Source of the DNA: an uncultured bacterium
Lineage (GTDB): Bacteria; Patescibacteriota; Minisyncoccia; Moranbacterales; UBA2206
Length of the DNA stretch: 64,000 nucleotides
Assembly: GCA_903937035.1 (NCBI GenBank)
Contig: CAIZXS010000005.1
Location: forward strand, 62,746-126,745
Reading direction: 5' to 3'
Shown piece after piece: positions 29,386 to 53,538 of the stretch. Within the stretch, counting starts at the first letter, position 1. The number at the start of each line of letters is the position of its first letter. The translations under genes were made by a program, and so were the position numbers. The notes under the pieces are model-generated. The model worked only from the letters and a program-made list of their open reading frames with translations. It made no database searches and was not told where the DNA came from.

Positions 29386-29386
29386 T

Positions 29387-33296: not shown

Positions 33297-33310
33297 AGAT
33301 TTTAATTAAA

Positions 33311-33703: not shown

Positions 33704-33907
33704 ATGAAAATGCTCTTAAATAATGGAAGTGTAATCAATAATGCTCCAATTATGTCAGAAAAGACCAGAAAATATCTTAATCAGTTTTGGCGCTTTCCTT
33801 CCAAAGAAGAAACTGAAAAAGAGAAGGAGAAATATTATATCGTTGAATGTAGTAAAAAGTCGCAAACAACAGATGAATTTGTAGTTGAGCATGATATCTG
33901 CATATAG
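33704..33907 (+). CDS. Conserved small protein (MSEKTRKYLNQFWRFPSKEE family), paralog 2
   Basis: Aligned start MKMLLNNG matches MQMILNSG of paralog 1. The ORF track starts 8 codons earlier at 33680. Confidence 0.5.
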   Translation: MKMLLNNGSVINNAPIMSEKTRKYLNQFWRFPSKEETEKEKEKYYIVECSKKSQTTDEFVVEHDICI

Positions 33908-34008
33908 GTTCCAGTCGAAGACAGAAAAAGCTTCTGTCTTCCCTGGAGTTTATCTAAATTCTTAGGTAGCTCGTAGTTTTTGAACATTTAAAATTGGAGG
34001 AATGAAGA

Positions 34009-37340: not shown

Positions 37341-40067
37341 TTATAGTTCTCCCCAATTATCTCCAATTTCAACATTGGCGACTAGTGGAACGCGGAGTGT
37401 GTAGGCTTTTTCTAGAATCGTTTTGATTTTTTGTGCCACTTCCTCGGCCAGCTCTTCCTTTACTTCCAAAATAATTTCATCGTGCACTTGGAGAAGCATT
37501 GCGACATCAGAATTATTTTCAAATTCTTTCGCCACATGGAGCATGGCGATTTTCATAATATCAGACGCGAGGCCTTGAATAGGCATATTGATCGCCATGC
37601 GTTCGGCGGCACTTTGGACTTGAAAGTTGGATGAATTAATTTCGGGGATATAGCGACGCCGGCCGATTTCTGTTTCGACGTAGCCGAATTTTTTGGCAAA
37701 TTCTTTGGTTTCGCGCATGTAATTGGCGACACCTTGGAATTTTTCAAAATAGGCGTCGATAAATCGTTTAGCATCATCACGCGAGATGCCGGCGCGAGCG
37801 GAAAAACCAAATGAGCCCATGCCATAAATAACACCGAAATTTAATTCTTTGGCAGTGCGACGAATCTTGTCCGTTACTTGTGAAGGTGTCAAATTATTGA
37901 TTTCAGCCGCGGTGGCGCGGTGGATGTCTTCGCCATTGTGGAATAGCTCAATCATTTTTTTATCTCCACTTACATGTGCCACAACGCGCAAATCAATTTG
38001 TGAATAATCGGCGCTGACTAATTTGTAACCATCTTCGGCGACAAAAGCGGTGCGAAGAAGTTGTCCGAGATCGGTGCGTGTGGGAATATTTTGCAAATTT
38101 GGATCGGATGAGGAGAGACGACCAGTCGCTGTGACGGCTTGATTGAAAGTGGAATGCAAGCGTGAATTTTTGTCGACCATCAGTGGTAATGTGTCGAGAT
38201 AGGTATTTTTTAGTTTGGTGATTTCCCGGAATTCTTCAATTTTTTCAATAATTTTATGCTCACCGCGCAGTTTGTCTAGTTCTGCGGAAGCGGTGGAGAT
38301 GACGCCGGATTTCCCCTTTTTGATGTTACCGACAGGCAGCTGCATTTTTTCAAACAAAACTTCTGAGAGTTGTTTTGGCGAAGCAATATTAAACGTCGTG
38401 CCAGACATTAAATAAATATTTTCTTCCAGTTTTGCAATGCGTTTGGTGATCGTCTGCGAAATGCCGGAAAAAATCAGCGTGTTTAATTTGATACCCTTTA
38501 TTTCCATTTGTGCTAAAACCTTAGCAAGGGGGATTTCTAATTTAGCATAGACTTCACTGAGTGTATTTTTTACCGCATTATTATTTTCAACCTGTTCAGC
38601 ACTGATTTTTTCGATTGCCTCTTTATGGATTTTTTTTAGTTTGAAAATGTAGTCTGCGATAGCACAATTTTTCTGAACTATTTCTTGGGCACTTTCAATT
38701 TCAAGCCCGAGTTGTCCCTTTTTTAAATCCTCTTTCATTTCTTCTTGCAAAAATTCCGCCACAAGATCGGAAAGAGTTATTTTTCTGCCCGGACTGAGGA
38801 CATAGCTGCTAAGTAAGATATCAAAATAGTTTCCAGCTAAGTTGATCCCAGCCTTTTGCAAAATCTCAAAATCACTCTTAAGGTCAAAGCAAATTTTCTC
38901 CGACTGAGGATTTTCCAAGAGTTTTTTTATCTCGGAAAATATTTCTGTATTTTCTAGATCAAAATAAATTGCCCGGCCAGTTTTATAGCCAATGGCAATG
39001 CCGGAGAGGGTACTGGTATGGGCGGTCGCCCCGTTAGTTTTTAGTTTTATAGCTAATTCTTCTTGGTCCATCAAGCTTTTCATTAGTTCTCGGAAGTTGC
39101 TTTGGTTGGCTAGCTCAAATTTAAAGTCTTTTACGCCATCAGTTTTTTTCAAGGCGGGATTGCTATCGTTCGTTTTTGTTTCGGGGATATTGCCGAGCAA
39201 GCGTTTTTTGAGACTATGAAAATTCAGCTCAGTAAAAAGTGCCACTAATTTTTCTTTATCAAAATCTTTTGTTATGGACTTTTCCAGATCAAGCGTGACT
39301 GGAACCTCTCGGGAAATCGTGGCGAGACCCTTGCTTTGAATGGCAATCAAGCGATCTTTTTCTAATTTTTCGCGCACTGGTTTTTTGATCTCTTCCAAAT
39401 GGGCATAAACATTTTCCAATGTGCCATAGGTTTTTAAAAGATCAATAGCGGTTTTCTCGCCAATCCCTTTTACGCCAGGAATATTATCCGATGGATCACC
39501 GCGCAGACCCTTGTAGTCAATCAATTGTTCCGGCGCAAGTGAAAAGCGTTCAAAAATTTCTGCCTTGCCATAGAGCACGGAATCAGTCAGGCCTCGGCGC
39601 ATTGTGTAAACTTTTGTAACATCATCAACGAGTTGCAAAGTATCCATGTCACCAGTGACAATAATCGTTTGTAATTCTTTGCTGTTTTCTTTGGCTTGTT
39701 TTGCTAGCGTGCCAATCACATCATCAGCCTCAAAACCGCTGACAGCATAGATTGGAATGCCAAACGCCTCGGTCACTTCTTTGACACGGGGGATCTGGGC
39801 ATATAGTGCATCATCCGCCTTCACGCGCGTTGCCTTATACTCCGCATATTCGATGTGGCGAAAAGTTGGTCCGGCCAAATCAAAGGTGGCAATGATATAT
39901 TTCGGCTCGAATTTAGCAATAATGGAAAGCAACGTCGAAGCAAAGCCATAAACCGCATTCACTAGCTCGCCATTTTTCGTTGTGAAGGGGGGGAGAGCGT
40001 GATATGACCGATGAATGATGGCATTGCCATCAATGAGGATGAGTTTTTCGGGTTTGATTTCAGGCAT
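37341..40067 (-). CDS. polA: DNA polymerase I
   Basis: 908 aa. 5-3 exonuclease N-terminus LILIDGNAIIHRSYHA.., polymerase motifs RRTAKELNFGVIYGMG (motif B) and LLQVHDEIILE (motif C). Confidence 0.92.
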   Translation of the reverse strand: MPEIKPEKLILIDGNAIIHRSYHALPPFTTKNGELVNAVYGFASTLLSIIAKFEPKYIIATFDLAGPTFRHIEYAEYKATRVKADDALYAQIPRVKEVTEAFGIPIYAVSGFEADDVIGTLAKQAKENSKELQTIIVTGDMDTLQLVDDVTKVYTMRRGLTDSVLYGKAEIFERFSLAPEQLIDYKGLRGDPSDNIPGVKGIGEKTAIDLLKTYGTLENVYAHLEEIKKPVREKLEKDRLIAIQSKGLATISREVPVTLDLEKSITKDFDKEKLVALFTELNFHSLKKRLLGNIPETKTNDSNPALKKTDGVKDFKFELANQSNFRELMKSLMDQEELAIKLKTNGATAHTSTLSGIAIGYKTGRAIYFDLENTEIFSEIKKLLENPQSEKICFDLKSDFEILQKAGINLAGNYFDILLSSYVLSPGRKITLSDLVAEFLQEEMKEDLKKGQLGLEIESAQEIVQKNCAIADYIFKLKKIHKEAIEKISAEQVENNNAVKNTLSEVYAKLEIPLAKVLAQMEIKGIKLNTLIFSGISQTITKRIAKLEENIYLMSGTTFNIASPKQLSEVLFEKMQLPVGNIKKGKSGVISTASAELDKLRGEHKIIEKIEEFREITKLKNTYLDTLPLMVDKNSRLHSTFNQAVTATGRLSSSDPNLQNIPTRTDLGQLLRTAFVAEDGYKLVSADYSQIDLRVVAHVSGDKKMIELFHNGEDIHRATAAEINNLTPSQVTDKIRRTAKELNFGVIYGMGSFGFSARAGISRDDAKRFIDAYFEKFQGVANYMRETKEFAKKFGYVETEIGRRRYIPEINSSNFQVQSAAERMAINMPIQGLASDIMKIAMLHVAKEFENNSDVAMLLQVHDEIILEVKEELAEEVAQKIKTILEKAYTLRVPLVANVEIGDNWGEL

Positions 40068-40144
40068 AGTGGTTAAATAAAAAAGCCATTAAAATTTAAT
40101 GGCTTAATTATAGCAATTGAAACGAAAAAATGCACTATTGATTG

Positions 40145-40345
40145 CTATTCGCGTTCTTCAATAAATTCTTCTCCTGTCTCCGGGTCGACTCTGTCCAGAT
40201 ATTCTTGCTCTCTTTGTTGTTCTAGGGTAAATCCCTGAGCTTGTTTTTCGCGTAGTTGCGCTAAATCTTCCTCAGTTTTCTTTCTAGCTTTTTCTTCTAG
40301 TTGTTTTCTGACTTCGTCAGCTGAGGGCATTGATAATTCTCCCAT
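40145..40345 (-). CDS. Small acidic coiled-coil protein, hypothetical
   Basis: 66 aa (or 61 aa from the second Met, which has a ggaga SD 8 nt upstream). Same strand as, and immediately downstream of, TrmB paralog 3. Confidence 0.3.
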   Translation of the reverse strand: MGELSMPSADEVRKQLEEKARKKTEEDLAQLREKQAQGFTLEQQREQEYLDRVDPETGEEFIEERE

Positions 40346-40469
40346 ATGTTTTGTTGCTATTAATTATTTAAGACTAACTCTTAGCAATTTAAGTATAGCA
40401 GATTTTTACTCCCGAAGGAATGAGTTACGCTTCCTAGTTAAGGTGGAATAATTATAAAACGAAAGTCAA

Positions 40470-41279
40470 CTATGTAGGTGCCATCTTCCACAACGCTTCA
40501 AACCAAGCACGGTTCATCCCATAGATATTTTTGTCTTCGATGAGGATGGAGATGGTATTGCTTTTGTCAAAAATCTGGTAGGAAATTTTGCCGTCATAAA
40601 TTTGGATGTTGGATTTGAACGGATCAATAAGATCATTGAGATAGCGGATTTCTGTGATCGCGTCATATTTATCATCCGACGTGCCAAAGGTAATTTCCGG
40701 TTTTTTCCCCGCGCGTAGAATGCGTTTTTTGAGGCCTTTATATTTTCTTTTTCTTTTATACTCATCATTGATTGCCTTAAACTTTTCTTCCGTTTGCATG
40801 GCGTTGGTGTTTATGAAAAGCAAAATTTCTGTTTTGGAGGTGAGGGTATCGTCGAGAATTTTTTGCATCCCTTCTTCACCTTCATAGAATTTCACCCCAG
40901 GTTTATTGAGCGTAATGTTATAGCTGGAAATGAGACTGGGCAGAGTATCTTCAAAAGTTTTTTTATCTTGATTGAGTTCAGCTTCTTTGTTCTCCAGAAT
41001 TTTCTCCAAATTACGCGGATGAGTCGCGCGCCACTTCGCCACTTCTTTTTCCTTTTCGATTTTTTCCACCAGATTTAGCGCAAGCAGTTCTTCCAGGGCT
41101 TTATAGGCCACTCCGCGTGGATGGTTAGCAATCTTTGCCACATCGCTGGCCTTCGTTTCGCCATGCTCAAACAAGCAATCCAGCACAGCGGATTGGGTTT
41201 TGGTGAGGCCGAATTTTTGGAGTTGGTCGTTAAACATTAGGTTGTTCGCTTCATGAACCCCGCCTTCTAGCGGGGACAT
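40470..41279 (-). CDS. TrmB-family transcriptional regulator (paralog 3 of 3)
   Basis: 269 aa. FGLTKTQSAVLDCLFEHGETKASDVAKIANHPRGVAYKAL wHTH. C-terminus ..WFEALWKMAPT. Confidence 0.55.
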   Translation of the reverse strand: MSPLEGGVHEANNLMFNDQLQKFGLTKTQSAVLDCLFEHGETKASDVAKIANHPRGVAYKALEELLALNLVEKIEKEKEVAKWRATHPRNLEKILENKEAELNQDKKTFEDTLPSLISSYNITLNKPGVKFYEGEEGMQKILDDTLTSKTEILLFINTNAMQTEEKFKAINDEYKRKRKYKGLKKRILRAGKKPEITFGTSDDKYDAITEIRYLNDLIDPFKSNIQIYDGKISYQIFDKSNTISILIEDKNIYGMNRAWFEALWKMAPT

Positions 41280-41302
41280 ACGAATTAGTATTCGCCATGG
41301 AC

Positions 41303-41340
41303 AGGAGCTGAGCTTCTGGAGCTCCAGAAGCTCAGCTCCT
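41303..41340. promoter_or_regulatory. Perfect 19+19 bp palindrome immediately upstream of TrmB paralog 3 (candidate operator)
   Basis: aggagctgagcttctggagc|gctccagaagctcagctcct. No T run on either side, so it is unlikely to be an intrinsic terminator. Confidence 0.4.
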
Positions 41341-41386
41341 GTTTCGCTAGCTATTATTTAAGGTGCCAAATTGGAACCTTAGAAAT

Positions 41387-42088
41387 TTAATCCTTTTCTA
41401 TAGTATTGTCATAAAATCCAATTCTCTTTTTTGGCTCAGTATCTTCTTTCATCAGCCGCGCAATCATTTGAAAAACAACCTTGAAACTCTTGTCATATTT
41501 ATTTTCCATCAGCTCAACTTTTTCACGCAGTTGCTTGTGAGTGGACAAAATCTCTCGCAGTTTTACAAAAGTCCGCACAATTTGGATACTAACCGCCACC
41601 GCGCGCTTGCTTTTGAGAACGGCAGAAAGCATCGCGACGCCTTGCTCGGTGAAAACATAGGGAGCATATTTCAGATGTTGTCCACGACCTTTCTTCAAGG
41701 TCACAAATTGTGACCTTGAAGATTTGTTATTGTTTAAGATTCCATTTTGGAATCTTAAAGATTTTTTGTCACTTGAGGTCACAAATTGTGACTGCAAGTT
41801 TTCATCGTTCAAGGTGCCATTTTGGTACCTTGAAAATGCGGTAGCCTCTTTTTCACTTAATTGAAACATGAAATCTTTTGGAAATCGGTCAATATTTCTT
41901 TTAACAGCTTTATTTAAATTTCCTGTGATTACGCCATAAAGTTCAGCTAAATCTCGGTCAAACATCACCTTTTCCCCGCGAATAAAGTAAATTTGGCTCA
42001 TTATGCGTTCATCGGGGACTGCACTTGAGGTTCCATTTTGGAAGCTCAAGTTTTCTTTCTTGGCCATATTTTTTGATTTTTTAGACAT
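41387..42088 (-). CDS. ORF6N-domain protein (phage anti-repressor/Rha-like family) with internal in-frame duplication
   Basis: 233 aa. IYFIRGEKVMFDRDLAELYGVITGNLNKAVKRNIDRFPKDFMFQLSEKE is the ORF6N N-domain. C-terminal region has YAPYVFTEQGVAMLSAVLKSKRAV. There is an extra ~38-aa insert with FQNG/SQFVT repeats. Confidence 0.6.
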   Translation of the reverse strand: MSKKSKNMAKKENLSFQNGTSSAVPDERIMSQIYFIRGEKVMFDRDLAELYGVITGNLNKAVKRNIDRFPKDFMFQLSEKEATAFSRYQNGTLNDENLQSQFVTSSDKKSLRFQNGILNNNKSSRSQFVTLKKGRGQHLKYAPYVFTEQGVAMLSAVLKSKRAVAVSIQIVRTFVKLREILSTHKQLREKVELMENKYDKSFKVVFQMIARLMKEDTEPKKRIGFYDNTIEKD

Positions 42089-43336
42089 TTTATACTCTAA
42101 TTCTAGCAGGTTTTTGCATCTTTGTCAACATTGAAAATGACAATATGCAAGTTAAGATAAGCCAAAATAGTCTTTTATGTTAGGGGGAATGGTGACAAAA
42201 GTCTAAAAATGCCATAGTTTCTATGGACAAAATGGTGAAATTCTGATATACTACGCAGTCAAGATGAATCACCGAAAAGAGAAGGTGGTCGAAGAAGAGA
42301 GAATCTTCACTTGATAAACAAGAGTACCTTAAATCAAATAATGTATCCCAATTGTCCTGGAATCTCCCAATCTTCGAAAGAAGAAAAGGAATCCAAGACG
42401 AAACGGATCATTGAATGGCACAACGAAACAGCCGGCATACCAAAGTCCTATGCAATCCTAAAAGGATAAAGAAGAGAGAAAAGATAGTTCCATAAATCAA
42501 TATCATTGATTTGTAGAATTTCTTTAGGACACGGCCAACAAGGTTGTTTCACATTTCGCGAGCCATCGCGAGATGGAAAGTGGTCTCCGGTTCTAATTTT
42601 TTTTTGGAATCGGAAGCAGGCTTTCCAAAAAAAGCCTAAAGTACATTTGATTTACAAATAGTAAAGAAGAAGAGAGCTAAAGATGAATTTTTTTTCAAAA
42701 AAAATACCAATTCGTCTTTAGAAAAATGTCAGTGATAGTTCATTTTGATTTTTCGTCAAAATCTCTCTTCTTCGAAAATCAAAAGAGCTTGTCTCACAAA
42801 TGGTTTTCATCGCGAAAGTTTCCATTTTTGAGCGAAAATTGTGAAAGACGAGGAGGAATATTGAACATATTCCGACGAATCTTGAACAATTTGCAGCCAA
42901 AAATGGGAGCTTGTAGTAGGAAAGCATTTGCGAGACAGGCTCTATATCACTGGCATTTTTGTGAATTGAAGGAGAGAGCAATTCATAAAAAAAGAAATGT
43001 TCTTTAACAATTGAATAGAAATTAGATTGATTTTTCCCCGCAAGGTTCTTTTTCGAAAAGAATCTGACGGGGGAAATGTCAATTAAAAAAAACTCTTTTT
43101 TCGAAAGTAAAGTTGCGATAAATCCTTGAGTAATGGGACGCGACGAAGGCAATGGAGTTTTGTCGGAGTAATTGTTTAATAAAAGTCCACCAAAAAAAGG
43201 ACATAATAAAAGCGAGAAAGACGAGACAGAGGAGCCACGGGAAAAGGAAAAAAATTGGACTTTCAGTGAAGTGCTTAGTCAGCACTGAGAAAGTCCCGGC
43301 CACATAGCGGCCGTAATTCTTCGAAAGGAGGATGCT

Positions 43337-43921
43337 ATGAATACAATGAGAACAGTATTATTGAGATCCCACTGGACAGAGTTAGTCATTGGGGTTTGTA
43401 ACCTCAATGACCGCCCCGACCCCCTTTGGGCTACCGCCTCTGGTTGCGGTGGCTGGGAAACTGGTTTGGACGGGGGTGGAAATGTCCACTCCCCGTCAGA
43501 ATGGGGAGTTATTTTTTCTCGGGCCCACTGGGACCGGGAAGGGGTGGAGGACCTCTGGGTTCTCCGAGTTCATGAAAAATTTTCCCAGGAGCATAATGAC
43601 CACTCTTGGGAGGCGGTGTACCGGCACCGCAACCCAGCCAAGCTGGGAAAAAATCCTCCCAATTGGGAGGATGATGGCTTCTGGGAAGAAGCCGTCATGA
43701 ACAAAGAACTCTGGGAGCGGGTCGAAAACCCACCCCTGGATGTTCTGGGGGTGCTACAAAGGGCACTCGCTTTGTCCCGCCGGTCGTGGGGGCAAGGGAA
43801 TTTTGATAGACTCTTTGGCGAGGAGGAGTCACCTGCTTCGGCGGGTGATGTTGTTGAAGGAATAATCGTCGTACCTCGGGCAAAGTCCCGATACGACGAG
43901 GAGTATGAAAGCGAAGTTTAG
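43337..43921 (+). CDS. Hypothetical Trp-rich protein encoded in a GC-rich island
   Basis: 194 aa. Strong SD gaaaggagg 6 nt upstream. Composition visibly GC-richer than the surrounding genome. W/G/R/E-rich product with no recognisable motif. Confidence 0.4.
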   Translation: MNTMRTVLLRSHWTELVIGVCNLNDRPDPLWATASGCGGWETGLDGGGNVHSPSEWGVIFSRAHWDREGVEDLWVLRVHEKFSQEHNDHSWEAVYRHRNPAKLGKNPPNWEDDGFWEEAVMNKELWERVENPPLDVLGVLQRALALSRRSWGQGNFDRLFGEEESPASAGDVVEGIIVVPRAKSRYDEEYESEV

Positions 43922-44321
43922 CTTTCATGATCCCGACACTGACAAGTCGCTAAACTGTCACGAGAGAGCCACTTGTTAAAACTTCTTTGAACCGTCTTCA
44001 TAAAATTGTCCAGCGTTGAGTTATCCATACTCAAAGCACCATGGGACCCACGCCACCGATTCAGTCGGTCGGCAAGAAGGCGGCAAGGTAATTTCTTTTG
44101 TCTAGTTCTTTCCCAAAAAGAAACTAGACGCCCAATCCGAGTCGGGCAAAAGACTGGGATAGCTGGCTCCGGCGATCGGATGGGCAAAACCACAAATAGC
44201 GGAAAGGATGTCCACCATGACACTTTTCCGCTTTTTTATTGGGGAAAATTTAGAAATTTTGATAAATTGCGCTATTATAATAAAATTAGCTTGCAACAGT
44301 TTAATATTTAAAATAAAAAAT

Positions 44322-45524
44322 ATGTTTTCAAGAAAATTAGAATCCATTTCGCCGGAAGAGAGAAAAGAAATAAAAGAAAAAATAAAAAAAGAAACAGATG
44401 ATATGTTGGCAGGATTAAATGAACATGGTGCTATTATTGATATTAAGCTGGCAATGTCAAAACAGGCGATAAAAGATTCCAGAAAACGGGCCGATATTCA
44501 GAGAAAGATAAAAGAAATGGAAAATATTGGTCAACCAAATGAAAACGAACTGGAAGAAGCCATGGGAAAAGCAGAAGTTCTAGTCAGAAAAGAGGAACGG
44601 CTTAATTTTATTTTTCAAAAATATGAAGAATTGATTAGTTTGGCAAATAGAGGTGATCAGGCGCTAAGAAGAACTATCTTGAAAGATGGGCAAAAGAGCG
44701 TTCCTGCTCGTTTATCAGTGGTTGTTTTGGAAAAAATAAAAAAAGATTTTCAGTTTTTTCTTCCCTTCAAACAGGAGAACTTTTTTTTGAAAAAAGTGAA
44801 AAAGTTTTTTTCTGAAGCTAAGCTAGAAAACTCGAAAGAATTCAGCGAGCAGGAATTGGATGAATTGATTAAACAAATAAAGAAAAAAGAAACAGAGATA
44901 GAGCTTATTTCCGCCTTGCTCACCGCGACCAAAAAAGCCGGGGCGGAGCAGAATGTTTCGGGGATAAAAGGCGTGGAGTTGGAAGTTGTTGATGGAAAAA
45001 AATTGGCAGAAAATGAGCCGTTAGCGGAAAAATTAACAGTGATGTATCGTGCGAATAATTCGCATAAATCAGAAAAAGATCTGGAAAGATTGCTGGGTGA
45101 TTTTGAAAAACATAAGCAATATGAGCCAAAATTTAATTTAATTTATTTTGACAGGGAAAATAAAACTAATCCAAAAAAGTCTTTGGAAAATTTAGTCGGT
45201 TTTATGCGTTCATCCGGCTGCATTACAAAATTTGAAGAGCAGCCGCTCGTTGAATTGCCGGAAGGCGAGCGCTATCTCGGCGCGATGAATATTGACCCGA
45301 TTTTGCAAAAATTCTATTTCGGGGAAAACTTTTTGCGTGAGATTATGGAAAAAGAATTTTCCAGCGGTACGAAAAAACTGATCGCGCATGTGCCGGAAAA
45401 TGGACCGTCACATAAAATTGTTAAACTGCTGGGTTTTGAGACTGTGGCCGAAGAAGGGGATTATCGGGATGATGCCGGCGATATTATCGCGAAGAGATTG
45501 CGGGTGGAGTTGGCGAGAGACTGA
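44322..45524 (+). CDS. Hypothetical K/E-rich coiled-coil protein
   Basis: About 400 aa from MFSRKLESISPEERKEIKEK. The ORF-track start at 44208 lies inside an AT-rich promoter-like stretch, so ATG 44322 is the more plausible start. Confidence 0.45.
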   Translation: MFSRKLESISPEERKEIKEKIKKETDDMLAGLNEHGAIIDIKLAMSKQAIKDSRKRADIQRKIKEMENIGQPNENELEEAMGKAEVLVRKEERLNFIFQKYEELISLANRGDQALRRTILKDGQKSVPARLSVVVLEKIKKDFQFFLPFKQENFFLKKVKKFFSEAKLENSKEFSEQELDELIKQIKKKETEIELISALLTATKKAGAEQNVSGIKGVELEVVDGKKLAENEPLAEKLTVMYRANNSHKSEKDLERLLGDFEKHKQYEPKFNLIYFDRENKTNPKKSLENLVGFMRSSGCITKFEEQPLVELPEGERYLGAMNIDPILQKFYFGENFLREIMEKEFSSGTKKLIAHVPENGPSHKIVKLLGFETVAEEGDYRDDAGDIIAKRLRVELARD

Positions 45525-45677
45525 AATCAGTTTTATTTTATGTGAAATTCCTTTACTGGCCCTTTGTGCGTCCCCTCTCAGGGATGGAGGCTGATATGCA
45601 TGGAAATTATTAAGCCAGGGTATTTGCGTGCAATTTTTCTTTGTCTCATATATAATGCAAAATATGAAGCTAAAAAT

Positions 45678-46259
45678 ATGATTGGAAAAATCAGAGGAAA
45701 AATTGAATCAATCAAAGAAAGTTATGTCATTATTGATGTGCATGATATTGGCTATAAGGTTCAGATGAATAGCTATTCTTTGGCGAAAATTGCTGGCACT
45801 GAAGTGGTGGAGCTTTTCATCTACACGCATGTGCGTGAAGACGTGCTGGCGCTTTATGGCTTTATTACCGAAGAGGAGCAAGAGATGTTTGAGCTTTTGA
45901 TTTCGATTTCTGGTATCGGCCCAAAGGCGGCTTCGAGCATCTTGGCGATCGCCAGTCCAAAAACGATCAAAGCTGCTATTGTTAATGAGGATCCGTCAAT
46001 TTTGACTAAAGTTTCCGGTATCGGCAAGAAAACGGCTGGTCGGGTGATTTTGGAATTGAAAAATAAAGTGGGAACGATTTCGCAGGATGATCAAGATGAA
46101 ACGACGGGTGATTCTAATGCAATTGAGGCTTTGATGGCAATGGGGTATAGTGCCTATGAAGCGCGCGAAGCTTTGAAAGTTGTTCCGGCGGATGTTCAGG
46201 ATATTGGAAAGCGAGTGGGCATGGCACTAAAAAACATTGGTAAGAATAGAAAAAATTAA
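45678..46259 (+). CDS. ruvA: Holliday junction DNA helicase RuvA
   Basis: MIGKIRGKIESIKESYVIIDVHDIGYKV.. OB-fold N-terminus, HhH motifs ISGIGPKAA / VSGIGKKTA, C-terminal domain III. The ORF track starts 38 codons earlier. Confidence 0.85.
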   Translation: MIGKIRGKIESIKESYVIIDVHDIGYKVQMNSYSLAKIAGTEVVELFIYTHVREDVLALYGFITEEEQEMFELLISISGIGPKAASSILAIASPKTIKAAIVNEDPSILTKVSGIGKKTAGRVILELKNKVGTISQDDQDETTGDSNAIEALMAMGYSAYEAREALKVVPADVQDIGKRVGMALKNIGKNRKN

Positions 46260-46277
46260 TTTGTTAATATTAATAAA

Positions 46278-46817
46278 ATGAACAAGCAAAAAATTGCTAT
46301 TGGCGCGGTAACTTTTATTGCAATGCTGGTAATTTCTGGTTGCGGACCAGATTTGGGGAAAACAATCATAGAAAAAACGATTGAATCGCAAACAGGCGGA
46401 AAGGTGAGTATTGACTCTGATAAGGGTGAGGTAAATATTAAGTCAGATCAGGGAGATTTGAGTGTGTCTGGAAATGGAACAGCTTCATTGAACAAGGATT
46501 TTCCCAAAGATATCTATATTGCTCCAGATGCTAAAGTAATAATGTCGCTTGCAAATGGCGAGAATAAAAGCTATTCAGTTGTCTATACTACAGCTATGAA
46601 ATCAGATGAAATTTATGTGAAGTATAAAGAAGAACTAATGGCAAAAGGCTGGACAACTGATCCGCAAACAGAGATTGTTTTCCAGGATTCTAAGACAATG
46701 CAATATAAAAATGGAGCAAAGAGGTTGACTCTAATCATGGGGCTTAGCCAGGAGTCACAATTTGAAGGCAGGACGCATGTGCAGGTGATTGGTGCGGAAG
46801 ATCAGTCGGGAAATTAG
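46278..46817 (+). CDS. Lipoprotein, hypothetical
   Basis: 179 aa. Signal peptide with lipobox MLVISGC. Confidence 0.5.
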   Translation: MNKQKIAIGAVTFIAMLVISGCGPDLGKTIIEKTIESQTGGKVSIDSDKGEVNIKSDQGDLSVSGNGTASLNKDFPKDIYIAPDAKVIMSLANGENKSYSVVYTTAMKSDEIYVKYKEELMAKGWTTDPQTEIVFQDSKTMQYKNGAKRLTLIMGLSQESQFEGRTHVQVIGAEDQSGN

Positions 46818-46835
46818 TTTTTAGTTTTTTGTAGT

Positions 46836-47816
46836 ATGGAAGAGGAAAAAAAGGCAAAATCAGTGCAAGAAAATTCTCCCTCAGGAGAATTTTTGCAGTC
46901 GAACGAATGGCTGATGTTTCAGGAAAGTGTTGGGCGAAAAACTTTCAATCTTGCTGGCAAGAATTTTTCGGCGAACATCATTGAGCACAGGCTTCCAATA
47001 GCTGGAAAGTATCTATATATTCCTAAAGGGCCAATCTTTTCATGTAACATGCAGCATATAACATGTAGCATTGATGAATTAATAAAGCTTGCAAAAGAAA
47101 ATAAGGCGGGGTGGATTCGGATTGAGCTGGAGACAGAAGAAATTTTGGAAATAGTTAGGAAAAATATAGACTATAAAATTGTCAAAGCCCCGCATGATGT
47201 GCAGCCGAAAGAAATTTTTGTCATAGATATTTCTAAGAGCGAAGATGAATTATTGGCTGAAATGAAGCCCAAAACACGATATAATGTGAAGTTGGCGGAG
47301 AAGAGGGGTGTGATAGTGAGCAGTGGCCAGCGAACAGTGACCAGCAAAAATGTTGATGAATTTTTGAGACTTACGCAAGTAATGGCGAAGAGACAGGGGA
47401 TTGTTGCGCATCCGGCAGAGTATTATCGCAAAATGATTGAAAATATTTCTGGTGACATCTTGAAACTATATGTTGCGGAATATGAAGGAAGAGTTATTGC
47501 GGCTAATCTCGTTGTGTTTTTTGGTGAAGCTTGTGTTTATCTTCACGGTGCGTCGGATGATGATTATAGGAACGTCATGGCGCCCTACCTTTTGCAGTGG
47601 CAGCAAATTCAAGACGCGAAAGAGGCGGGTTGTGTGAGATATGATTTCGGGGGAGTTTCCGCGATCAATTGGCAGGGGATTACTAAATTTAAACTTGGCT
47701 TTTCGCCAAAAACAATGCCAACTATTTTCCCTGGTAGTTACGATATCGTTATTAGTATGACAAAATATCGATTATATCGAAGTATCCAGAGATTAAGGCG
47801 TCTGCGCAGGGACTGA
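46836..47816 (+). CDS. FemAB-family aminoacyltransferase (peptidoglycan interpeptide bridge formation)
   Basis: 326 aa. KTRYNVKLAEKRGV and YLHGASDDDYRNVMAPYLLQWQQIQDAKEAGCVRYDFGGV resemble FemX/FemAB acyltransferase-fold signatures. Confidence 0.6.
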   Translation: MEEEKKAKSVQENSPSGEFLQSNEWLMFQESVGRKTFNLAGKNFSANIIEHRLPIAGKYLYIPKGPIFSCNMQHITCSIDELIKLAKENKAGWIRIELETEEILEIVRKNIDYKIVKAPHDVQPKEIFVIDISKSEDELLAEMKPKTRYNVKLAEKRGVIVSSGQRTVTSKNVDEFLRLTQVMAKRQGIVAHPAEYYRKMIENISGDILKLYVAEYEGRVIAANLVVFFGEACVYLHGASDDDYRNVMAPYLLQWQQIQDAKEAGCVRYDFGGVSAINWQGITKFKLGFSPKTMPTIFPGSYDIVISMTKYRLYRSIQRLRRLRRD

Positions 47817-47872
47817 TATTTTCAGGCGTGTTGCCTTTTTGTCTAAGAGCAGAACTTTCTTGTTAGCTGGTG

Positions 47873-47900
47873 CTTTACAATTTTCATAAATACTATACAA
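47873..47900 (+). promoter_or_regulatory. Candidate promoter for the surface-protein cluster
   Basis: TTACAA, 16 nt spacer, TACAAT, located ~65 nt upstream of 47966. Confidence 0.3.
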
Positions 47901-47965
47901 TTTATATAGTAGTAGGTTTAGTGAAGACTTTGGTCTATTTAAAAAAAGTTTAAAATAAAAAAAAT

Positions 47966-48610
47966 ATGAAAAAGACGATTAAGATGACGTTGGCGAGTAG
48001 TGTGGTGCTAATGCTACTTTTTGTTATTCTTGAGCCACAACTAACAAAAGCCGTTAGTGATTCCGTTACTGTTTCTCAATCAGTTACCGCCGAGATCACC
48101 ATTTCTTCTCCGTCTGACGTGACAATGTCAAGTATTGCTGGTATCACTGGCGGAACCGGAACAGGGTCGGCCATTTGGAACGTCAAGACTAATAATTCCA
48201 CAGGATTTAATATGGCATTGAAGGCTGGCGCGGCCCCAGCACTTGCTAGCGGTGGAAATAATTTTGCTGATTACGGGGAGGCCACTCCCGATACACCTGA
48301 TTATACTTGGTCGATTGCAGCCACTGATTCAGAATTTGGTTATACGGTTGAACCAGCAACAGCTGGTGACGCTACAGTGATGTTCCGGGATAATGGGACA
48401 ACGACTTGTGGAACAGGAGCTAATCAGACTGCTGACAAATGTTGGATCAAGTTTAAGACAACTGATGTAATTGGGATTAACCGGTCTAGCGTAACAACTG
48501 CAGCTGGAGAAGACGAGGTGGTGAAATTCCAAGCTCAATCTGGCGCATCGCACTTTCAACCACAAGGAACATATACAGCTACCATTACCGCGACTGCCTT
48601 GGTTAACTAA
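47966..48610 (+). CDS. Secreted beta-rich surface subunit, SCPU/DUF4402-like (type 1 domain)
   Basis: 214 aa. Signal peptide. C-terminal strand GTYTATITATALVN resembles the G-x-Y-x-G-x-F-T-V-T-V-x-Y-N end of DUF4402/spore-coat-U-like fimbrial proteins. Paralogous to the C-half of 52762..53514. Confidence 0.45.
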   Translation: MKKTIKMTLASSVVLMLLFVILEPQLTKAVSDSVTVSQSVTAEITISSPSDVTMSSIAGITGGTGTGSAIWNVKTNNSTGFNMALKAGAAPALASGGNNFADYGEATPDTPDYTWSIAATDSEFGYTVEPATAGDATVMFRDNGTTTCGTGANQTADKCWIKFKTTDVIGINRSSVTTAAGEDEVVKFQAQSGASHFQPQGTYTATITATALVN

Positions 48611-48647
48611 GTAGATTTCAGATGCAGGGGGTCGGTCTAATATATCT

Positions 48648-49622
48648 ATGAAAAAACTATTACTTTTCTTTTTTGCGATTTGTCTTTTTAGCAAAATTGG
48701 GGCTGCCCCAGTTTTTGCTTATAAAATAGAAGCTTTGGACGACTCTGAGACTAAGGGTGATTTTGTTTTGGGACCAGGTAAGACGGAGCTTTTTATGAAT
48801 CCGGGAGAGACCTATACAAAGGAGCTGATGATAACCAATCGTCTAGGTCGTACGATGGAGTTTGGTGTAATCGTTGAGGATTTTAAGGGTTCGAAAAATC
48901 CAGAAGAGAGTGTAAATCTTTTGGGTGATGAGCGAGGACCATTTTCTTTGCGCGACTATATTAAACCGGAAATTACCAAATTCACATTGAAAAATAATGA
49001 AAGGATTCTTTTGCCGACAGTCATTGCGATTCCGGCTGGTTCTGAACCGGGTGGTCTCTACGCATCTGTTTTAGTGGTCACCAATCCATCGGAAGAGGAA
49101 TTGAAAAAAGAGGATGAGAATAAAGGAAAAACAAAACTTATTTCTCGCTTGGGCACGCTATTTTTTGTGCGCGTAAAGGGTACTGCTAAGGAAGAGGGAG
49201 TTCTCAAGAGTTTTAATGTTAAAGATAATAAGCTTTTTTTTGAAAAAGCACCAGTATCCTTGGAAGTTCTTTTTGAAAATACTGGCAGTGTTCATTTGAT
49301 GCCTTATGGCTCGATTGAGATCAAAAATATTTTGGGTCAAAAAATTGATGAGATTAATGTTGATCCATGGTTTATTATGCCCGGGTCAATGCGGTCACGA
49401 GTGATTGAGTGGAGCGGGAAGAAACTATTATTTGGTAGATATACAGCTGAATTGGTTGAAAATAGAGGGTATGGGGATATTTTAGATAAAAAATCAATTA
49501 GCTTTTGGATTATTCCTTGGAAAGTTGTTTTAGCTATACTTTTCTTTTTATTCCTACTTAGCTGGTTTTTTCGCTGGGTGGGACGTCAATTTCATTTTGA
49601 AGTCAAGAGAAAGAAAAAATAA
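48648..49622 (+). CDS. DUF916/DUF3324-like cell-surface protein with C-terminal TM anchor (CscA-like), paralog 1
   Basis: 324 aa. Signal peptide, EPGGLYASVLVVTNP and FENTGSVHLMPYGSIEIKN beta-sandwich motifs, C-terminal TM VVLAILFFLFLLSWFF followed by basic tail RKKK. Confidence 0.45.
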   Translation: MKKLLLFFFAICLFSKIGAAPVFAYKIEALDDSETKGDFVLGPGKTELFMNPGETYTKELMITNRLGRTMEFGVIVEDFKGSKNPEESVNLLGDERGPFSLRDYIKPEITKFTLKNNERILLPTVIAIPAGSEPGGLYASVLVVTNPSEEELKKEDENKGKTKLISRLGTLFFVRVKGTAKEEGVLKSFNVKDNKLFFEKAPVSLEVLFENTGSVHLMPYGSIEIKNILGQKIDEINVDPWFIMPGSMRSRVIEWSGKKLLFGRYTAELVENRGYGDILDKKSISFWIIPWKVVLAILFFLFLLSWFFRWVGRQFHFEVKRKKK

Positions 49623-49639
49623 ATAAAAAAACCTATTCA

Positions 49640-50344
49640 ATGAAGTATTATATTGCCGTTTTCTTTTTAGTGTTATTTGCTTTTGGCGCTCCCTGTTTTT
49701 CATTGGCTGGAATGAGCAGTCAAAATTTTTCCATCCAAGCTGATGCGATTGATGTTGGAGGTACGCGTTCTTCATCTGGGGGAGTTTCTTTGAATGATTC
49801 GCTCGATGAGCTGGCAACGGGAGAATCAAGGAGTCTTTCTTTTATGGCGGATATCGGTTTTTGGCCAATGGTGGGCAATGATGAGGTTATCTCTTTCACC
49901 GTGACAGACGCGATAGCTAGCTTGGGAACACTTAGTCATTCGGCAGTGAGATATGACACAGCTACTTTCCGCGCTGCAACAACAGCCAAGGGCGGTTATT
50001 CTATCCAGTTTTTTGGGGTACCATTAACTTCTGGGGGTAATTTGATTAGTGCGCTGAGCACACCAACGCCTTCTGCGACTGACACGGAACAGTTTGGGTT
50101 TAACTTAGTGGCCAATAATTCCCCAGCGGTGGGCGTTGACCCTGTGGGTGGATCAGGTCAAGCTGCAGTTGGCTATAATACGCCAGATAGCTTCAAGTTT
50201 GTCTCTGGTGAAACAATTGCTCAAGCAGCTTTGCCCTCTAACTTTACCAACTACACAATGTCAATCATCAGTAACATTACAGGAATAACTGACGCGGGAA
50301 ATTATGCCACAAACCTAACCGTTGTTGTGACAGGAAGGTATTAG
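49640..50344 (+). CDS. Secreted beta-rich surface subunit with N-module MSSQNFSIQAD.. (type 2 domain)
   Basis: 234 aa. Signal peptide. The N-module is shared with 52762..53514. C-terminal strand GNYATNLTVVVTGRY. Confidence 0.45.
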   Translation: MKYYIAVFFLVLFAFGAPCFSLAGMSSQNFSIQADAIDVGGTRSSSGGVSLNDSLDELATGESRSLSFMADIGFWPMVGNDEVISFTVTDAIASLGTLSHSAVRYDTATFRAATTAKGGYSIQFFGVPLTSGGNLISALSTPTPSATDTEQFGFNLVANNSPAVGVDPVGGSGQAAVGYNTPDSFKFVSGETIAQAALPSNFTNYTMSIISNITGITDAGNYATNLTVVVTGRY

Positions 50345-50436
50345 TTGATTTTGAAAAAAATAGCTTTACTCTTTTATTATTTTTGGTATAATAAAATAGA
50401 TGGAGAAAATATAAATAATATATTAGTAAAAACAAA

Positions 50437-51522
50437 ATGCAACAAAAAAAAGGATTCATTGTTGGCTTGGGGGTTATGGTGCTTATTACGCTTGGAGTGT
50501 TTATTCTGAAAGCTCAAGCCGCATCACTTACAACAGCAAGAGTTTATCTTAATCGAAATGCAGAAAATCTCACCACAGGCGTGGCACACGAAATCCAATT
50601 TACCCCAGCGACAGCTGTCTCTGGTGGGGCGGGAGTGAATAAAGTAATTTTGGTTTTTCCAGATGCTGATGATGGTAAGTGGTGTGCCACTGCGGGAGCA
50701 CTTGTTGTCACGACTACAGGACTAAAAGATACAGCTACTGCGCTTCCTGGCACTCCGACAGCTGCTTGCGTAAAAGGAGTGGGCGCTGCCAGCTACGACA
50801 CTATCACAATCAGCGCCGTTGATGATTTATCCGCTGCAACACTTTATGGTGTAAAACTGACAGATACTGGAGTGGGAAAACTCGGTACGCCGGCTAATAC
50901 AACATCAGGCATCATCACGATGAAAACCAATAACAATACGATTGACATTGATAGTACTAATTTTGTTATTGACATTCTTGCTAGCGATCAAATTTCTATC
51001 TCAGGTGTGGTTGACCCAACTTTGACTTTTTCTATTTCAGATAGCTCAATTGGTTTTGGAACAATTACTTCAGCTGCTGTGAGATATGTCACAGCAGATT
51101 TGCTGGGTAGCGCGACTGAAGCGACCAACGGGTTGCCATCGACAGTAACTGTTTCAACTAATGGTACTGGTGGTGTTGTAGTAGAAATCAAGGATACTAA
51201 TGCTAATTCAGCTTCTGGTCTCTATAGCAATGCTGGATCAGGAAAGACGATCGCTTCTGCTGCTAGTACTGCTGTTACCTTAGGGAATGAAGGTTTCGGA
51301 GTATATGGAAAAAATTCCAGCAACATTACGCTCAGCGAAGCGTTTGACAATGACAGCACCGCTGATCTGGCAATTAGCACAACTTTTCAAACTATTGCTT
51401 CAACAGCTGGTCCTGTTAGTTCCGGCTCATTTGATATCTCAGCCAAGGCTGGCGTGTCCGGTTCGACTCCTGCTGGTAGCTATGCCGATACGCTGACAGT
51501 TGTTGCAACAGGAAAATTCTAA
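50437..51522 (+). CDS. Secreted/anchored beta-rich surface subunit (type 2-like domain, larger)
   Basis: 361 aa. N-terminal TM/signal. Region TFSISDSSIGFGTITSAAVRYVTADL parallels ISFTVTDAIASLGTLSHSAVRYDTATF of the preceding gene. C-terminal GSYADTLTVVATGKF. Confidence 0.45.
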   Translation: MQQKKGFIVGLGVMVLITLGVFILKAQAASLTTARVYLNRNAENLTTGVAHEIQFTPATAVSGGAGVNKVILVFPDADDGKWCATAGALVVTTTGLKDTATALPGTPTAACVKGVGAASYDTITISAVDDLSAATLYGVKLTDTGVGKLGTPANTTSGIITMKTNNNTIDIDSTNFVIDILASDQISISGVVDPTLTFSISDSSIGFGTITSAAVRYVTADLLGSATEATNGLPSTVTVSTNGTGGVVVEIKDTNANSASGLYSNAGSGKTIASAASTAVTLGNEGFGVYGKNSSNITLSEAFDNDSTADLAISTTFQTIASTAGPVSSGSFDISAKAGVSGSTPAGSYADTLTVVATGKF

Positions 51523-51545
51523 ATTAATCCTTACTCTTAAATCAA

Positions 51546-52535: not shown

Positions 52536-52581
52536 AAAAGTATTAAGGATTTCTATTTATATAAAAAATAACCCCCCCTAT

Positions 52582-52720: not shown

Positions 52721-52761
52721 TTTTTATTTAAATGCGCAAGTCCTTTTTTCAAAAGTTCGCT

Positions 52762-53514: not shown

Positions 53515-53538
53515 AAAAATATTAAATTAAAATTTGAT

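Follow-up and report, generated by a model that had tools for sequence, protein, structure and literature searches.

A putative giant RNA leader of conserved predicted structure ahead of interchangeable small genes in Moranbacteria

In order to establish why a compactly organized genome of the CPR (Patescibacteria) lineage Moranbacterales should contain more than a kilobase without genes, positions 42089-43336 of a 64,000-nt stretch (contig CAIZXS010000005.1, positions 62,746 to 126,745 of the forward strand; hereafter, the window) were analyzed together with the 194-aa open reading frame (ORF) that follows. A first-pass annotation, made from the sequence alone, had described this region as an island of strongly purine-skewed non-coding DNA followed by a GC-rich, Trp-rich ORF, and had interpreted it as a degraded prophage, integrative element or foreign DNA, with a large non-coding RNA as the alternative. 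The observation was confirmed by our analysis. The interpretation was supported only in part, since the main reading was not supported whereas the alternative was. The features recognized in the region are listed in Table 1.

The gene-free stretch and the ORF that follows it

No credible ORF was found between 42089 and 43336. The longest were 144 aa on the - strand (42718-43152, TTG start) and 93 aa on the + strand, and neither had a Pfam match. Moreover, neither can be conserved, because close relatives lack the 160 nt at 42784-42944 that lie inside them. The frame at 42239-42470, which the first-pass annotation had regarded as decayed, is open but is not a decayed gene: relatives keep the nucleotides, while indels shift the frame and place a stop in it. 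The purine bias was overstated, as the leader (A 37%, G 21%, T 26%, C 16%) is 58% purine and the + strand genes just downstream are at least as skewed. The motif [AG]A[AG]GAGAG occurred 4 times on the + strand of the 1.08-kb leader, compared with 15 times on the + strand and 9 on the - strand of the whole window. The 17-mer said to be shared with a repeat family is real (42279-42295 = 29355-29371) but weak (BLAST E 0.007), lies in a hairpin arm that varies between relatives, and was among the short matches at chance level that were the only copies of the region detected elsewhere in the window.

The 194-aa ORF has the ribosome-binding site GGAGGA and a GC content of 54%, against 40% for the window. 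Its identity to a homolog in the related locus L029 (loci with the prefix L are the related loci and sequences recovered in this analysis) was 0.63/0.75/0.40 by codon position, which is the pattern of a true, although fast-evolving, coding sequence. Misassembly is unlikely, since the same junctions occur in independent assemblies (L001, L029, L036 and L044) and the identical protein is recorded on 18 contigs.

Table 1. Features of the region, in window coordinates (promoters, terminator and RNA structures are predictions).
Positions	Strand	Feature	Description and support
40470-41279	-	TrmB-family regulator	Pfam PF01978, E 2.9e-11; a TrmB-like gene lies at the upstream edge of the unit, directly or with an ORF6N gene between, in every locus that extends that far (L004, L006, L014, L027, L029, L047, L049)
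41387-42088	-	ORF6N (anti-repressor-like) gene	Transcribed divergently from the unit; Pfam ORF6N, E 9.7e-32; PHROG anti-repressor families; PADLOC candidate PDC-S05, E 8.7e-54
42100-42143		Control region of the ORF6N gene	Promoter-like site on the - strand (42128-42100; 11 of 12 promoter matches) and inverted repeat TTGTCA-N10-TGACAA (42122-42143); the block 42089-42268 is 74-93% identical in 6 of the 7 relatives compared
42212-42252	+	Promoter of the unit	Palindrome CCATAGTTTCTATGG overlapping the -35 box TGGACA, 17-nt spacer with TG, -10 box TATACT (10 of 12 matches; promoter-like site 42224-42252); predicted start near 42259; conserved in relatives; paralogous copy at 31200-31240
42259-42425	+	Leader domain S1	Helix P1 (42259-42268 with 42306-42314) encloses hairpin H1 and the first GAAGAGAG motif; long hairpin (42340-42412) capped by CUUC-GAAA-GAAG
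42426-42537	+	Variable linker	Second GAAGAGAG motif (42471) and a lineage-specific hairpin; relatives carry different hairpins and GC-rich insertions here
42538-42631	+	Block B	Hairpin with invariant loop GCCA, closing helix GAAAG/CUUUC with invariant G.U pairs, variable-sequence hairpin; invariant junction sequences GAAAGUGGUC and GCAGGCUUUC
42640-42986	+	Domain D3, a pseudoknot	Helix P-a, GAAGAAGAGAG (42666-42676) with CUCUCUUCUUC (42763-42773); helix P-b, GUCAGUGAUA (42728-42737) with UAUCACUGGC (42945-42954); hairpins c (42677-42721), d (42747-42763) and e (42961-42986)
42784-42944	+	160-nt hairpin insertion	Seen only in this window among the sequences compared; absent from L029, L036, L004 and L044; folds as one long hairpin
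43022-43254	+	Accessory module D4	88-90% identical in L029, L036 and L044; second partial copy after the first ORF in L036; relatives of another subtype carry modules X-Y here instead
43255-43339	+	Z element (85 nt)	Three hairpins, then the hairpin AUUCUUC-GAAA-GGAGGAU that pairs the ribosome-binding site, then GCUAUG with the start codon
43337-43921	+	Cargo gene	194-aa Trp/Gly-rich protein of unknown fold; only 3 protein clusters among 5.8 billion
43922-44197	+	Structured 3' UTR	Last ~40 nt (44158-44196, ...GGAUGGGCAAAACCACAAA) shared with loci that carry other cargo (L004, L014); consensus fold of 3 sequences
44198-44240	+	Intrinsic terminator	AGCGGAAAG ... CUUUUCCGCU followed by UUUUUU; same layout in L014, L004, L029, L034 and L038
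44322-45524	+	p438	Own promoter-like site at 44259-44286; predicted long helical N-terminus and C-terminal GNAT-fold domain (AlphaFold2 pLDDT 85-94 for residues 210-400; Foldseek hits to GNAT acetyltransferases, E about 1e-7, TM 0.6-0.69); only 11 clusters among 5.8 billion proteins; just downstream of the unit in every locus where a homolog was found

Conservation and predicted folding of the non-coding DNA

About 15 related Moranbacteria loci carry the same non-coding DNA, which is 76-91% identical where four-fold synonymous sites of PolA are near saturation (0.42-0.50). Homologous leaders were found in L001, L004, L014, L027, L029, L034-L036, L038, L042, L044, L051 and L052, and divergent ones in L047 and L049, while four of the 11 metagenome hits from pattern scans (L037, L039, L041 and L043) were unrelated GC-rich DNA. 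In the comparison with L029, identity was 0.76 for the 5' part of the leader, 0.91 for the middle, 0.90 for the 3' part and 0.91 for the 3' UTR, whereas the ORF was only 0.59 identical, and four-fold sites were 0.49 identical in PolA and 12 of 47 in the ORF. The stretch is therefore under strong purifying selection, rather than in neutral decay.

The leader folded far better than shuffled sequences (z-scores of -8.3, -9.9 and -5.9), and so did the 3' UTR (-5.1). Four parts showed compensatory base changes. In S1, RNAalifold on 12 sequences gave 35 pairs, 91% of them canonical against 31-45% when partners were slid, and 15 pairs with changes on both sides against 3-6, in agreement with the single-sequence fold. 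In block B, 29 pairs were 98% paired against 28-55% in slid controls, with 14 compensatory pairs. In Z, 92% were paired against 30-46% when slid, with 6 compensatory pairs, and RNAalifold independently found all four hairpins. In D3, helix P-b was 100% paired in 12 sequences and 5 of its 10 pairs were compensatory, whereas P-a was 89% paired but almost invariant, so that covariation does not prove it; as P-a and P-b cross, both together make a pseudoknot. For block B, Z and the pseudoknot, 0 of 500 shuffles reached the observed paired fraction or covariation score. These tests used 11-12 sequences each, from 4-5 lineages, and the counts thus partly reflect shared ancestry. For D4 and the 3' UTR there were too few sequences for compensatory evidence: among the 67 predicted pairs of D4, variation was mostly one-sided towards G.U, with no double changes.

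The RNA was assigned to the + strand, since G.U against A.C counts in the helices were 36:1 for Z and 16:2 for block B, and a covariance model of block B scored 84-111 bits on the + strand and 16-25 bits on the - strand, with one copy per locus. The hairpin that pairs AUUCUUC with GGAGGAU was predicted both in the alignment of 11 Z copies and in the minimum-energy fold of the window, so that the ribosome-binding site is predicted to be paired in a conserved hairpin directly upstream of the start codon. The junction GUUCUUUGACAAUU, conserved after D3, was considered as an internal promoter, but no consistent -10 box follows it in the lineages inspected by eye; as a partner of AAUUGUC in S1 it was likewise rejected by eye, because the L014 type does not covary.

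No known RNA family was recognized. There were 0 matches to Rfam 15 at the gathering thresholds in the window and 0 in seven related loci totalling 101 kb (the families including OLE, ROOL, GOLLD, HEARO, raiA, group I/II introns, riboswitches, RNase P, tmRNA and 6S), and a permissive scan of 41200-44400 gave only sub-threshold matches, the best with 25.5 bits against a threshold of 90. Tandem Repeats Finder (minimum score 30) found nothing in 42089-43336, and thus no array of direct repeats such as that upstream of the toxin gene in type III (ToxIN-like) toxin-antitoxin systems. Literature searches returned no description of such an RNA in Moranbacteria, Patescibacteria or CPR bacteria.

A replication origin was also considered, because genes switch strand here (- strand at 37341-42088, + strand at 43337-54777). 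However, no match to TTATCCACA at one mismatch or fewer lies in 42089-43336, so there is no DnaA-box cluster, cumulative GC skew rises monotonically through the region without a minimum, and the unit is absent from close relatives; this reading is contradicted and most improbable.

Cargo genes and genomic setting

In relatives, the same leader and Z precede at least 14 unrelated small ORFs. In total, 20 cargo ORFs were listed, which formed 14 groups after duplicates and close homologs were merged, with no BLASTP match between groups at E 1e-3. None of 9 other cargo proteins scanned had a Pfam match above threshold. A covariance model of Z found 14 copies, one before each of the ORFs concerned, including three Z-ORF units in tandem in L049. 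For the Trp-rich protein, no match was found in Pfam, PHROGs or PADLOC, and the AlphaFold2 model, built from 3 sequences, had a pLDDT of 50 and was unusable.

The decayed prophage or coding remnant proposed by the first-pass annotation draws on the lack of a long ORF, the frames open without a start codon, the neighboring anti-repressor-type gene and the accessory nature of the locus. Nevertheless, it is contradicted by the conservation, the extensive covariation and the lack of preserved frames in relatives, and is very unlikely. No blastn match was found in 50,697 phage or 72,556 plasmid records, three pattern scans of viral contigs found nothing, and the only PHROG match was the ORF6N anti-repressor. 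No tRNA or tmRNA lies in the window and no repeat pair flanks 42-44 kb. A syntenic homolog of the Trp-rich ORF, named beforehand as evidence against foreign origin, was found in L029 (54% aa identity), in the order PolA, TrmB, ORF6N, 1.2 kb of non-coding DNA, ORF, p438 homolog and RuvA. One part of the island idea does survive: the whole unit is accessory, being absent from L002, L003, L017 and L020, where PolA lies close to RuvA; its cargo ORFs are GC-richer than their host loci; and in relatives it sits among toxin-antitoxin and defence-like genes.

The association of unrelated small ORFs with a conserved imperfect palindrome, the tandem units behind a single promoter in L049 and the GC-richer cargo could alternatively suggest that Z and its variants Z' and Z'' act at the DNA level, as recombination sites of an integron-like array at which promoterless cassettes are inserted. 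This is considered unlikely. No integrase or recombinase gene was seen in the loci examined, and specifically no recombinase domain occurred among the Pfam annotations of L029, L045-L047, L049, L051 and L052 or of the eight scanned window ORFs next to the unit (40145-46259). Integron attC sites lie 3' of each ORF with core sites RYYYAAC / GTTRRRY; read by eye only, without an attC model, Z lies 5' of the ORF and shows no GTTRRRY core. Moreover, Z contains the ribosome-binding site and the start codon, its stems keep pairing through G.U on the + strand only, which points to selection on RNA, and the single-copy 5' core is not explained by this model.

Interpretation and comparison with described systems

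Our best reading, held with moderate confidence, is that 42224-44240 is one + strand transcription unit of an accessory locus, and that the non-coding DNA is a cis-acting structured leader for swappable cassettes. In this view, a sigma-70-type promoter, flanked by palindromes and facing the divergent ORF6N and TrmB genes, gives an RNA of about 2 kb whose first ~1.08 kb (42259-43336) is a multi-domain leader. The constant core (S1, block B and D3; 42259-42986, 728 nt here and about 570 nt without the local insertion) is followed by exchangeable accessory modules (here, D4), Z, an interchangeable small-protein gene, the conserved structured 3' UTR and the terminator. The promoter, start site, co-transcription and terminator are all predictions from sequence. 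The scan of the + strand missed the terminator, presumably because its 16-nt loop exceeds the 3-8 nt limit of the scan, and the only terminator-like hairpin that it found between leader and ORF is weak and lies inside Z.

The analysis itself demonstrates that the non-coding parts are conserved well above neutral sites, that folding and covariation place the RNA on the + strand, that the ORF is a real coding gene, and that cargo differs between loci sharing the same leader and Z. By contrast, it is by inference that the leader and ORF are taken to be co-transcribed, that the Z hairpin would gate translation by masking the ribosome-binding site until something opens it, that the core would be a sensing, protein-binding or stabilising platform for the cassette mRNA, and that cargo would be swapped by homologous recombination between the conserved RNA-coding flanks. 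The repeated GAAGAGAG motifs may serve as binding sites or as alternative partners of the single CUCUCUUC tract.

A less favored, though possible, explanation is that the core (about 570-730 nt) is a stand-alone, trans-acting or RNP-forming RNA in the manner of OLE, ROOL or GOLLD, with the Z-ORF cassettes as passengers using the same promoter or read-through. The core is constant while everything after it varies, block B has invariant junction nucleotides between covarying stems, as in ribozyme or aptamer cores, and the size, GNRA loops and pseudoknot resemble those of the large ornate RNAs. Moreover, in L027 and L051/L052 an oppositely oriented MNT/HepT toxin-antitoxin pair sits between the core and the Z-type elements with their ORFs, and the core may therefore work apart from the cargo. 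However, these inserts are bounded by inverted repeats that could loop them out of a continuous RNA, no convincing terminator follows the core in the window (the hairpins there are followed by A-runs, not T-runs), and Z, D4 and the 3' UTR are conserved as strongly as the core. A more speculative and rather unlikely possibility, which the evidence leaves standing, is that the ~0.6-0.7-kb core is a new class of large catalytic or RNP-forming RNA specific to CPR bacteria, a docking platform for exchangeable cassettes rather than a passive leader, which could for example process or activate the Z-tagged mRNAs, or work with the always-adjacent coiled-coil GNAT protein, in a host-interaction or defence role.

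Among described systems, the large ornate RNAs of unknown or recently emerging function (OLE, ROOL, GOLLD, raiA, HEARO) share with this element a multi-domain length of several hundred nucleotides, many GNRA-capped hairpins, a pseudoknot, strongly conserved junction nucleotides between covarying stems, a narrow lineage range and a location in accessory DNA. The present RNA differs in that it matches no Rfam model, runs without a convincing terminator into a ribosome-binding-site element and an ORF, has 3' modules exchangeable between loci, belongs to a CPR bacterium and was found without tRNA or phage context. Hairpins that sequester the ribosome-binding site (RNA thermometers such as ROSE and fourU, and other translational riboregulators) are comparable to that of Z, where GGAGGA is paired in a 7-bp hairpin with two G.U pairs just before the start codon; yet the Z hairpin is GNRA-capped, preceded by three further conserved hairpins, nearly invariant in sequence, repeated before each cassette ORF, and not known to respond to temperature or a ligand. 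Integron cassette arrays likewise have one promoter followed by variable, unrelated, promoterless small ORFs, each tied to a conserved imperfect palindrome and sometimes in arrays of several units, although here a ~0.7-kb single-copy structured core precedes the array, in addition to the differences given above. Finally, variable small-gene loci next to a conserved regulator in mobile DNA (for example anti-CRISPR acr-aca loci and phage 'moron' slots) also place unrelated small proteins of unknown function beside conserved DNA-binding regulators (here TrmB and ORF6N), with toxin-antitoxin and defence-type neighbors, but this unit keeps one chromosomal position, between PolA and RuvA, across species, showed no phage, plasmid or viral similarity in the searches above, and has a kilobase-long RNA leader without counterpart in those loci.

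Bacterial RNAs longer than ~500 nt with complex, covarying structure are few, and the studied examples turned out to be ribozymes, RNPs or large assemblies. The present one lies in a CPR lineage, whose genomes are small and tightly packed, and in this window too a conserved non-coding kilobase stands out among closely spaced genes. An anomalous gene-free, compositionally odd stretch next to a phage-type gene can be the most conserved feature of a locus rather than junk. The architecture, in which one constant RNA core is followed by a repeated element predicted to mask the ribosome-binding site and then by unrelated small proteins with no detectable family, is not known to have a described counterpart. 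It suggests a dedicated way of expressing and exchanging accessory genes in episymbiotic bacteria, and gives a handle, in the Z element and the core model, for finding those proteins.

Gene content and sequence conservation of the locus

The window comes from a Candidatus Moranbacteria (CPR) genome, whose PolA is 95% identical to that of the MAG JBAXPY010000030. The order of the genes around the analyzed region was PolA, a 66-aa ORF, a TrmB-family regulator, an ORF6N gene, 1.25 kb without a credible ORF, a Trp-rich ORF of 194 aa, about 320 nt of GC-rich non-coding DNA, a 400-aa ORF (here called p438) and RuvA. The description given in the first-pass annotation, i.e. a stretch devoid of long ORFs and rich in purines followed by a GC-rich ORF, was accurate. 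The longest ORFs within the stretch were 144 aa (- strand) and 93 aa (+ strand), both without Pfam matches, the leader (the non-coding sequence preceding the Trp-rich ORF) was 58% purine, and the GC content of the Trp-rich ORF was 54%, compared with 40% for the window. However, the purine bias was no greater than in the + strand genes downstream; it fits + strand transcription and is not an anomaly.

Coordinates of the features described in the window and in related loci (L followed by a number)
Feature	Position	Strand	Remarks
Repeat family starting TGTCATTCTGAGCGTAGC...	23531-23596, 28792-28857, 52582-52647		three copies in the window
Repeat family B	29326-29392, 29964-30070, 33304-33415		GC-rich inverted and direct repeats (AAACTCACCTCATCCG...CTCCTTGGTAAGGAGA...); one copy inside the ORF at 29387-30325, the others in intergenic DNA
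TrmB-like gene	30330-31094	-	faces the stretch 31094-31923
Promoter like that of the unit	31200-31240		CCATAATCTATGGACA, 17 nt, TATACTACGC
Small ORFs	31309-31509, 31702-31884
TrmB-like gene	32550-33296	-	faces the stretch 33296-33954
Small ORF	33680-33907
PolA	37341-40067	-
66-aa ORF		-
TrmB-family regulator	40470-41279	-
Perfect 42-nt palindrome	41301-41342		ACAGGAGCTGAGCTTCTGGAG / CTCCAGAAGCTCAGCTCCTGT; 89% copy in L038 at 10675-10720
Palindromes of the ORF6N gene	within 41358-42058	-	e.g. 41692-41722 (TCTTCAAGGTCACAAATTGTGACCTTGAAGA), 41733-41759, 41811-41833, 42025-42049
ORF6N gene	41387-42088	-
Stretch without a credible ORF	42089-43336
Promoter-like site	42224-42252		TGGACA, 17 nt with TG, TATACT
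S1	42259-42425	+
Block B	42538-42631	+
160-nt hairpin	42784-42944	+	found only in this window among the sequences compared
Z element	43255-43339	+
Trp-rich ORF	43337-43921	+	194 aa
Predicted terminator hairpin and U-run	44198-44240	+
p438	44322-45524	+	400 aa
Three tandem copies	57978-58485		192-nt period, 62-80% identical; in a stretch with few long ORFs (56565-59272)
Insert starting TGTCATTCCGGAC...	L042 (oriented) 3331-3411		in the loop of the X module
MNT/HepT insert	L027 (oriented segment) 461-1170; L051 1920-2635	opposite	~18-nt inverted repeats (TTCAACYGAAACAAAAG)

In order to evaluate whether the non-coding DNA was conserved, related loci were retrieved through a PolA search of one genome per species (at least 28 loci), a pattern scan of metagenomes (at least 11 stretches, seven of which were real homologs, one of these being a duplicate of locus L030), and look-ups of contigs encoding homologs of the Trp-rich protein and of p438. 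At least about 15 loci contained, in blocks, DNA homologous to the stretch without a credible ORF. Full synteny was found in L029 (PolA-TrmB-ORF6N, 1.2 kb of non-coding DNA, a 193-aa homolog of the Trp-rich ORF, a p438 homolog and RuvA). The identity of the window to L029 was 0.90 for the promoter region, 0.76, 0.91 and 0.90 for the 5', middle and 3' parts of the leader, respectively, and 0.91 for the 3' UTR, yet 0.59 for the Trp-rich ORF, 0.49 for four-fold sites of PolA and 12 of 47 for four-fold sites of the Trp-rich ORF. The non-coding, RNA-coding DNA is therefore among the most constrained sequence in the locus, and is not decaying, while the Trp-rich ORF is a real gene that evolves fast (codon-position identity of 0.63/0.75/0.40). 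The open frames that had been taken for decayed genes were not preserved, as relatives keep the nucleotides but indels shift the frame. Moreover, the 17-mer described as shared between the leader and repeat family B was a weak match (BLAST E 0.007).

Evidence for a structured RNA on the + strand

Single-sequence folds were far more stable than those of dinucleotide shuffles, with z-scores of -8.3 (42259-42640), -9.9 (42641-43020), -5.9 (43021-43340) and -5.1 (43922-44240). Comparative tests were based on 11-12 sequences from 4-5 lineages, and part of the counts therefore reflects shared ancestry. In block B (29 pairs tested), 98% of cells were paired, compared with 28-55% when partners were slid, and 14 pairs had changed on both sides; the corresponding values were 92%, 30-46% and 6 for the Z element (19 pairs), and 91%, 31-45% and 15 (3-6 when slid) for S1 (35 pairs). 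In domain D3, helix P-b (10 pairs) was 100% paired with 5 pairs changed on both sides, and helix P-a (11 pairs) was 89% paired with 2 such pairs. The D3 test used an alignment built from the four helix strands joined by A4 spacers, and its slid control was run on both helices together (94% paired vs. 39-53%). For block B, Z and D3, none of 500 shuffles reached the observed paired fraction or covariation score. Block B showed the invariant junction sequences GAAAGUGGUC and GCAGGCUUUC. Depending on the lineage, helix P-b appeared as CAGUGAUA/UAUCACUG, CUAACGAGCU/AGCUCGUUGG or CAGCAAGU/ACUUGCUG, and it crosses P-a (GAAGAAGAGAG with CUCUCUUCUUC), which makes a pseudoknot, although P-a is nearly invariant and thus rests on complementarity and not on covariation. 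For module D4 and the 3' UTR, the sequences were too few for compensatory evidence.

Regarding the strand, G.U pairs far outnumbered A.C in the helices (36:1 in Z and 16:2 in block B), and the block B model scored 84-111 bits on the + strand and 16-25 bits on the - strand. Variable regions behaved like RNA expansion segments, with hairpins of different length and sequence at fixed positions, such as the 160-nt hairpin. No Rfam family matched the window or seven relatives. An insert in the X module of L042, similar by eye to the repeat family starting TGTCATTCTGAGCGTAGC..., suggests a small mobile hairpin element that lands in RNA loops.

Predicted transcription unit and variable cargo

The palindrome CCATAGTTTCTATGG overlapped the -35 box of the promoter-like site, while the promoter region of the ORF6N gene carried the inverted repeat TTGTCA-N10-TGACAA, both palindromes being conserved in relatives. 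The Trp-rich ORF was followed by a 3' UTR ending in ...GGAUGGGCAAAACCACAAA and then by the hairpin and U-run, and the same tail occurred in loci with different cargo. The only terminator-like hairpin between the leader and the ORF was a weak one inside Z. One RNA of about 2 kb, from about 42259 to about 44238, is therefore inferred, as a prediction from sequence alone.

Module mapping resulted in a common order: promoter, S1, variable linker, block B, D3, D4 (or X-Y in other subtypes), Z (or its variants Z' and Z''), an ORF, sometimes followed by further units of a Z-type element plus ORF, and the shared tail and terminator. The Z element ends in the hairpin AUUCUUC-GAAA-GGAGGAU, which pairs the ribosome-binding site, followed by GCUAUG. 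A model of this element (R1) found 14 copies, each directly before an ORF, with three in tandem in L049. The ORFs behind these elements were 78-288 aa long and, after merging duplicates and close homologs, formed 14 groups with no BLASTP match between groups; none of the nine scanned had a Pfam match above threshold. All 16 cargo ORFs measured (from the window, L004, L014, L029, L034, L036, L038, L042, L044, L045, L049 and L051) were GC-richer than their host loci by 3-15 points, although unrelated to each other, which could reflect a shared external gene pool or selection on mRNA structure. The Trp-rich protein had only three clusters among 5.8 billion proteins, and its fold could not be predicted.

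The best supported interpretation, considered somewhat more likely than not, is a cis-acting, multi-domain leader co-transcribed with interchangeable cassettes, in which Z would gate translation by masking the ribosome-binding site and cargo would be exchanged by recombination between the conserved flanks. Conservation, the structured RNA on the + strand, the coding nature of the Trp-rich ORF and the differences in cargo were shown by the sequence comparisons, while co-transcription, gating, cargo exchange and the function of the RNA remain inferred. The main alternative, possible though more doubtful, is that the constant core is a stand-alone large RNA, given that in L027 and L051/L052 an oppositely oriented MNT/HepT toxin-antitoxin pair lies after D3, between the core and the Z-type elements with their ORFs. 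These inserts, which look like a mobile toxin-antitoxin cassette with terminal inverted repeats, could nevertheless be looped out of a continuous RNA by the repeats that bound them. An integron-like DNA mechanism is unlikely, as no recombinase was found in the loci examined, the element is 5' of the ORF and contains the ribosome-binding site, and G.U pairing is strand-specific. The interpretation put forward in the first-pass annotation was only partly supported: the prophage-remnant reading is contradicted, while the large non-coding RNA that it had offered as an alternative is supported. The reading as oriC is contradicted as well.

Genomic context of the unit

The unit is accessory. L002 and L003 lacked the leader, cargo and p438, in L017 and L020 PolA was located directly next to RuvA, and in L047 the unit was found in a different neighbourhood, again beside a TrmB-like gene. 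In every locus where a homolog was found, p438 followed the unit; it combined a long, low-confidence helical N-terminus with a confident predicted C-terminal GNAT acetyltransferase fold, and had only 11 clusters among 5.8 billion proteins. Neighbours in relatives included AbiEii, MNT/HepT pairs and an AAA_14 ATPase, and ORF6N matched the PADLOC candidate PDC-S05. The ORF6N gene carried several 20-30-nt palindromes in frame, with one more just past the stop codon; its Pfam match needed an insertion of about 41 aa, and homolog lengths ranged from 193 to 233 aa. These may be in-frame palindromic element insertions or repeat expansion. The perfect palindrome between the TrmB and ORF6N genes, whose copy in L038 occurs at an unrelated place, may be a small repeated element or a two-way terminator.

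In addition to the regulator beside the unit, the window holds two more TrmB-like genes, each facing a non-coding stretch with small ORFs. The one at 31.2 kb has a paralogous promoter with the same palindrome and similar predicted first transcribed bases, and by eye a Z'-like hairpin lies before the small ORF starting at 31702, while the one at 33.5 kb has a TTGACA-type promoter and a similar predicted transcript start. Together they form a local family of TrmB-linked small-ORF units, of which the unit at 42 kb is thus the long-leader member.
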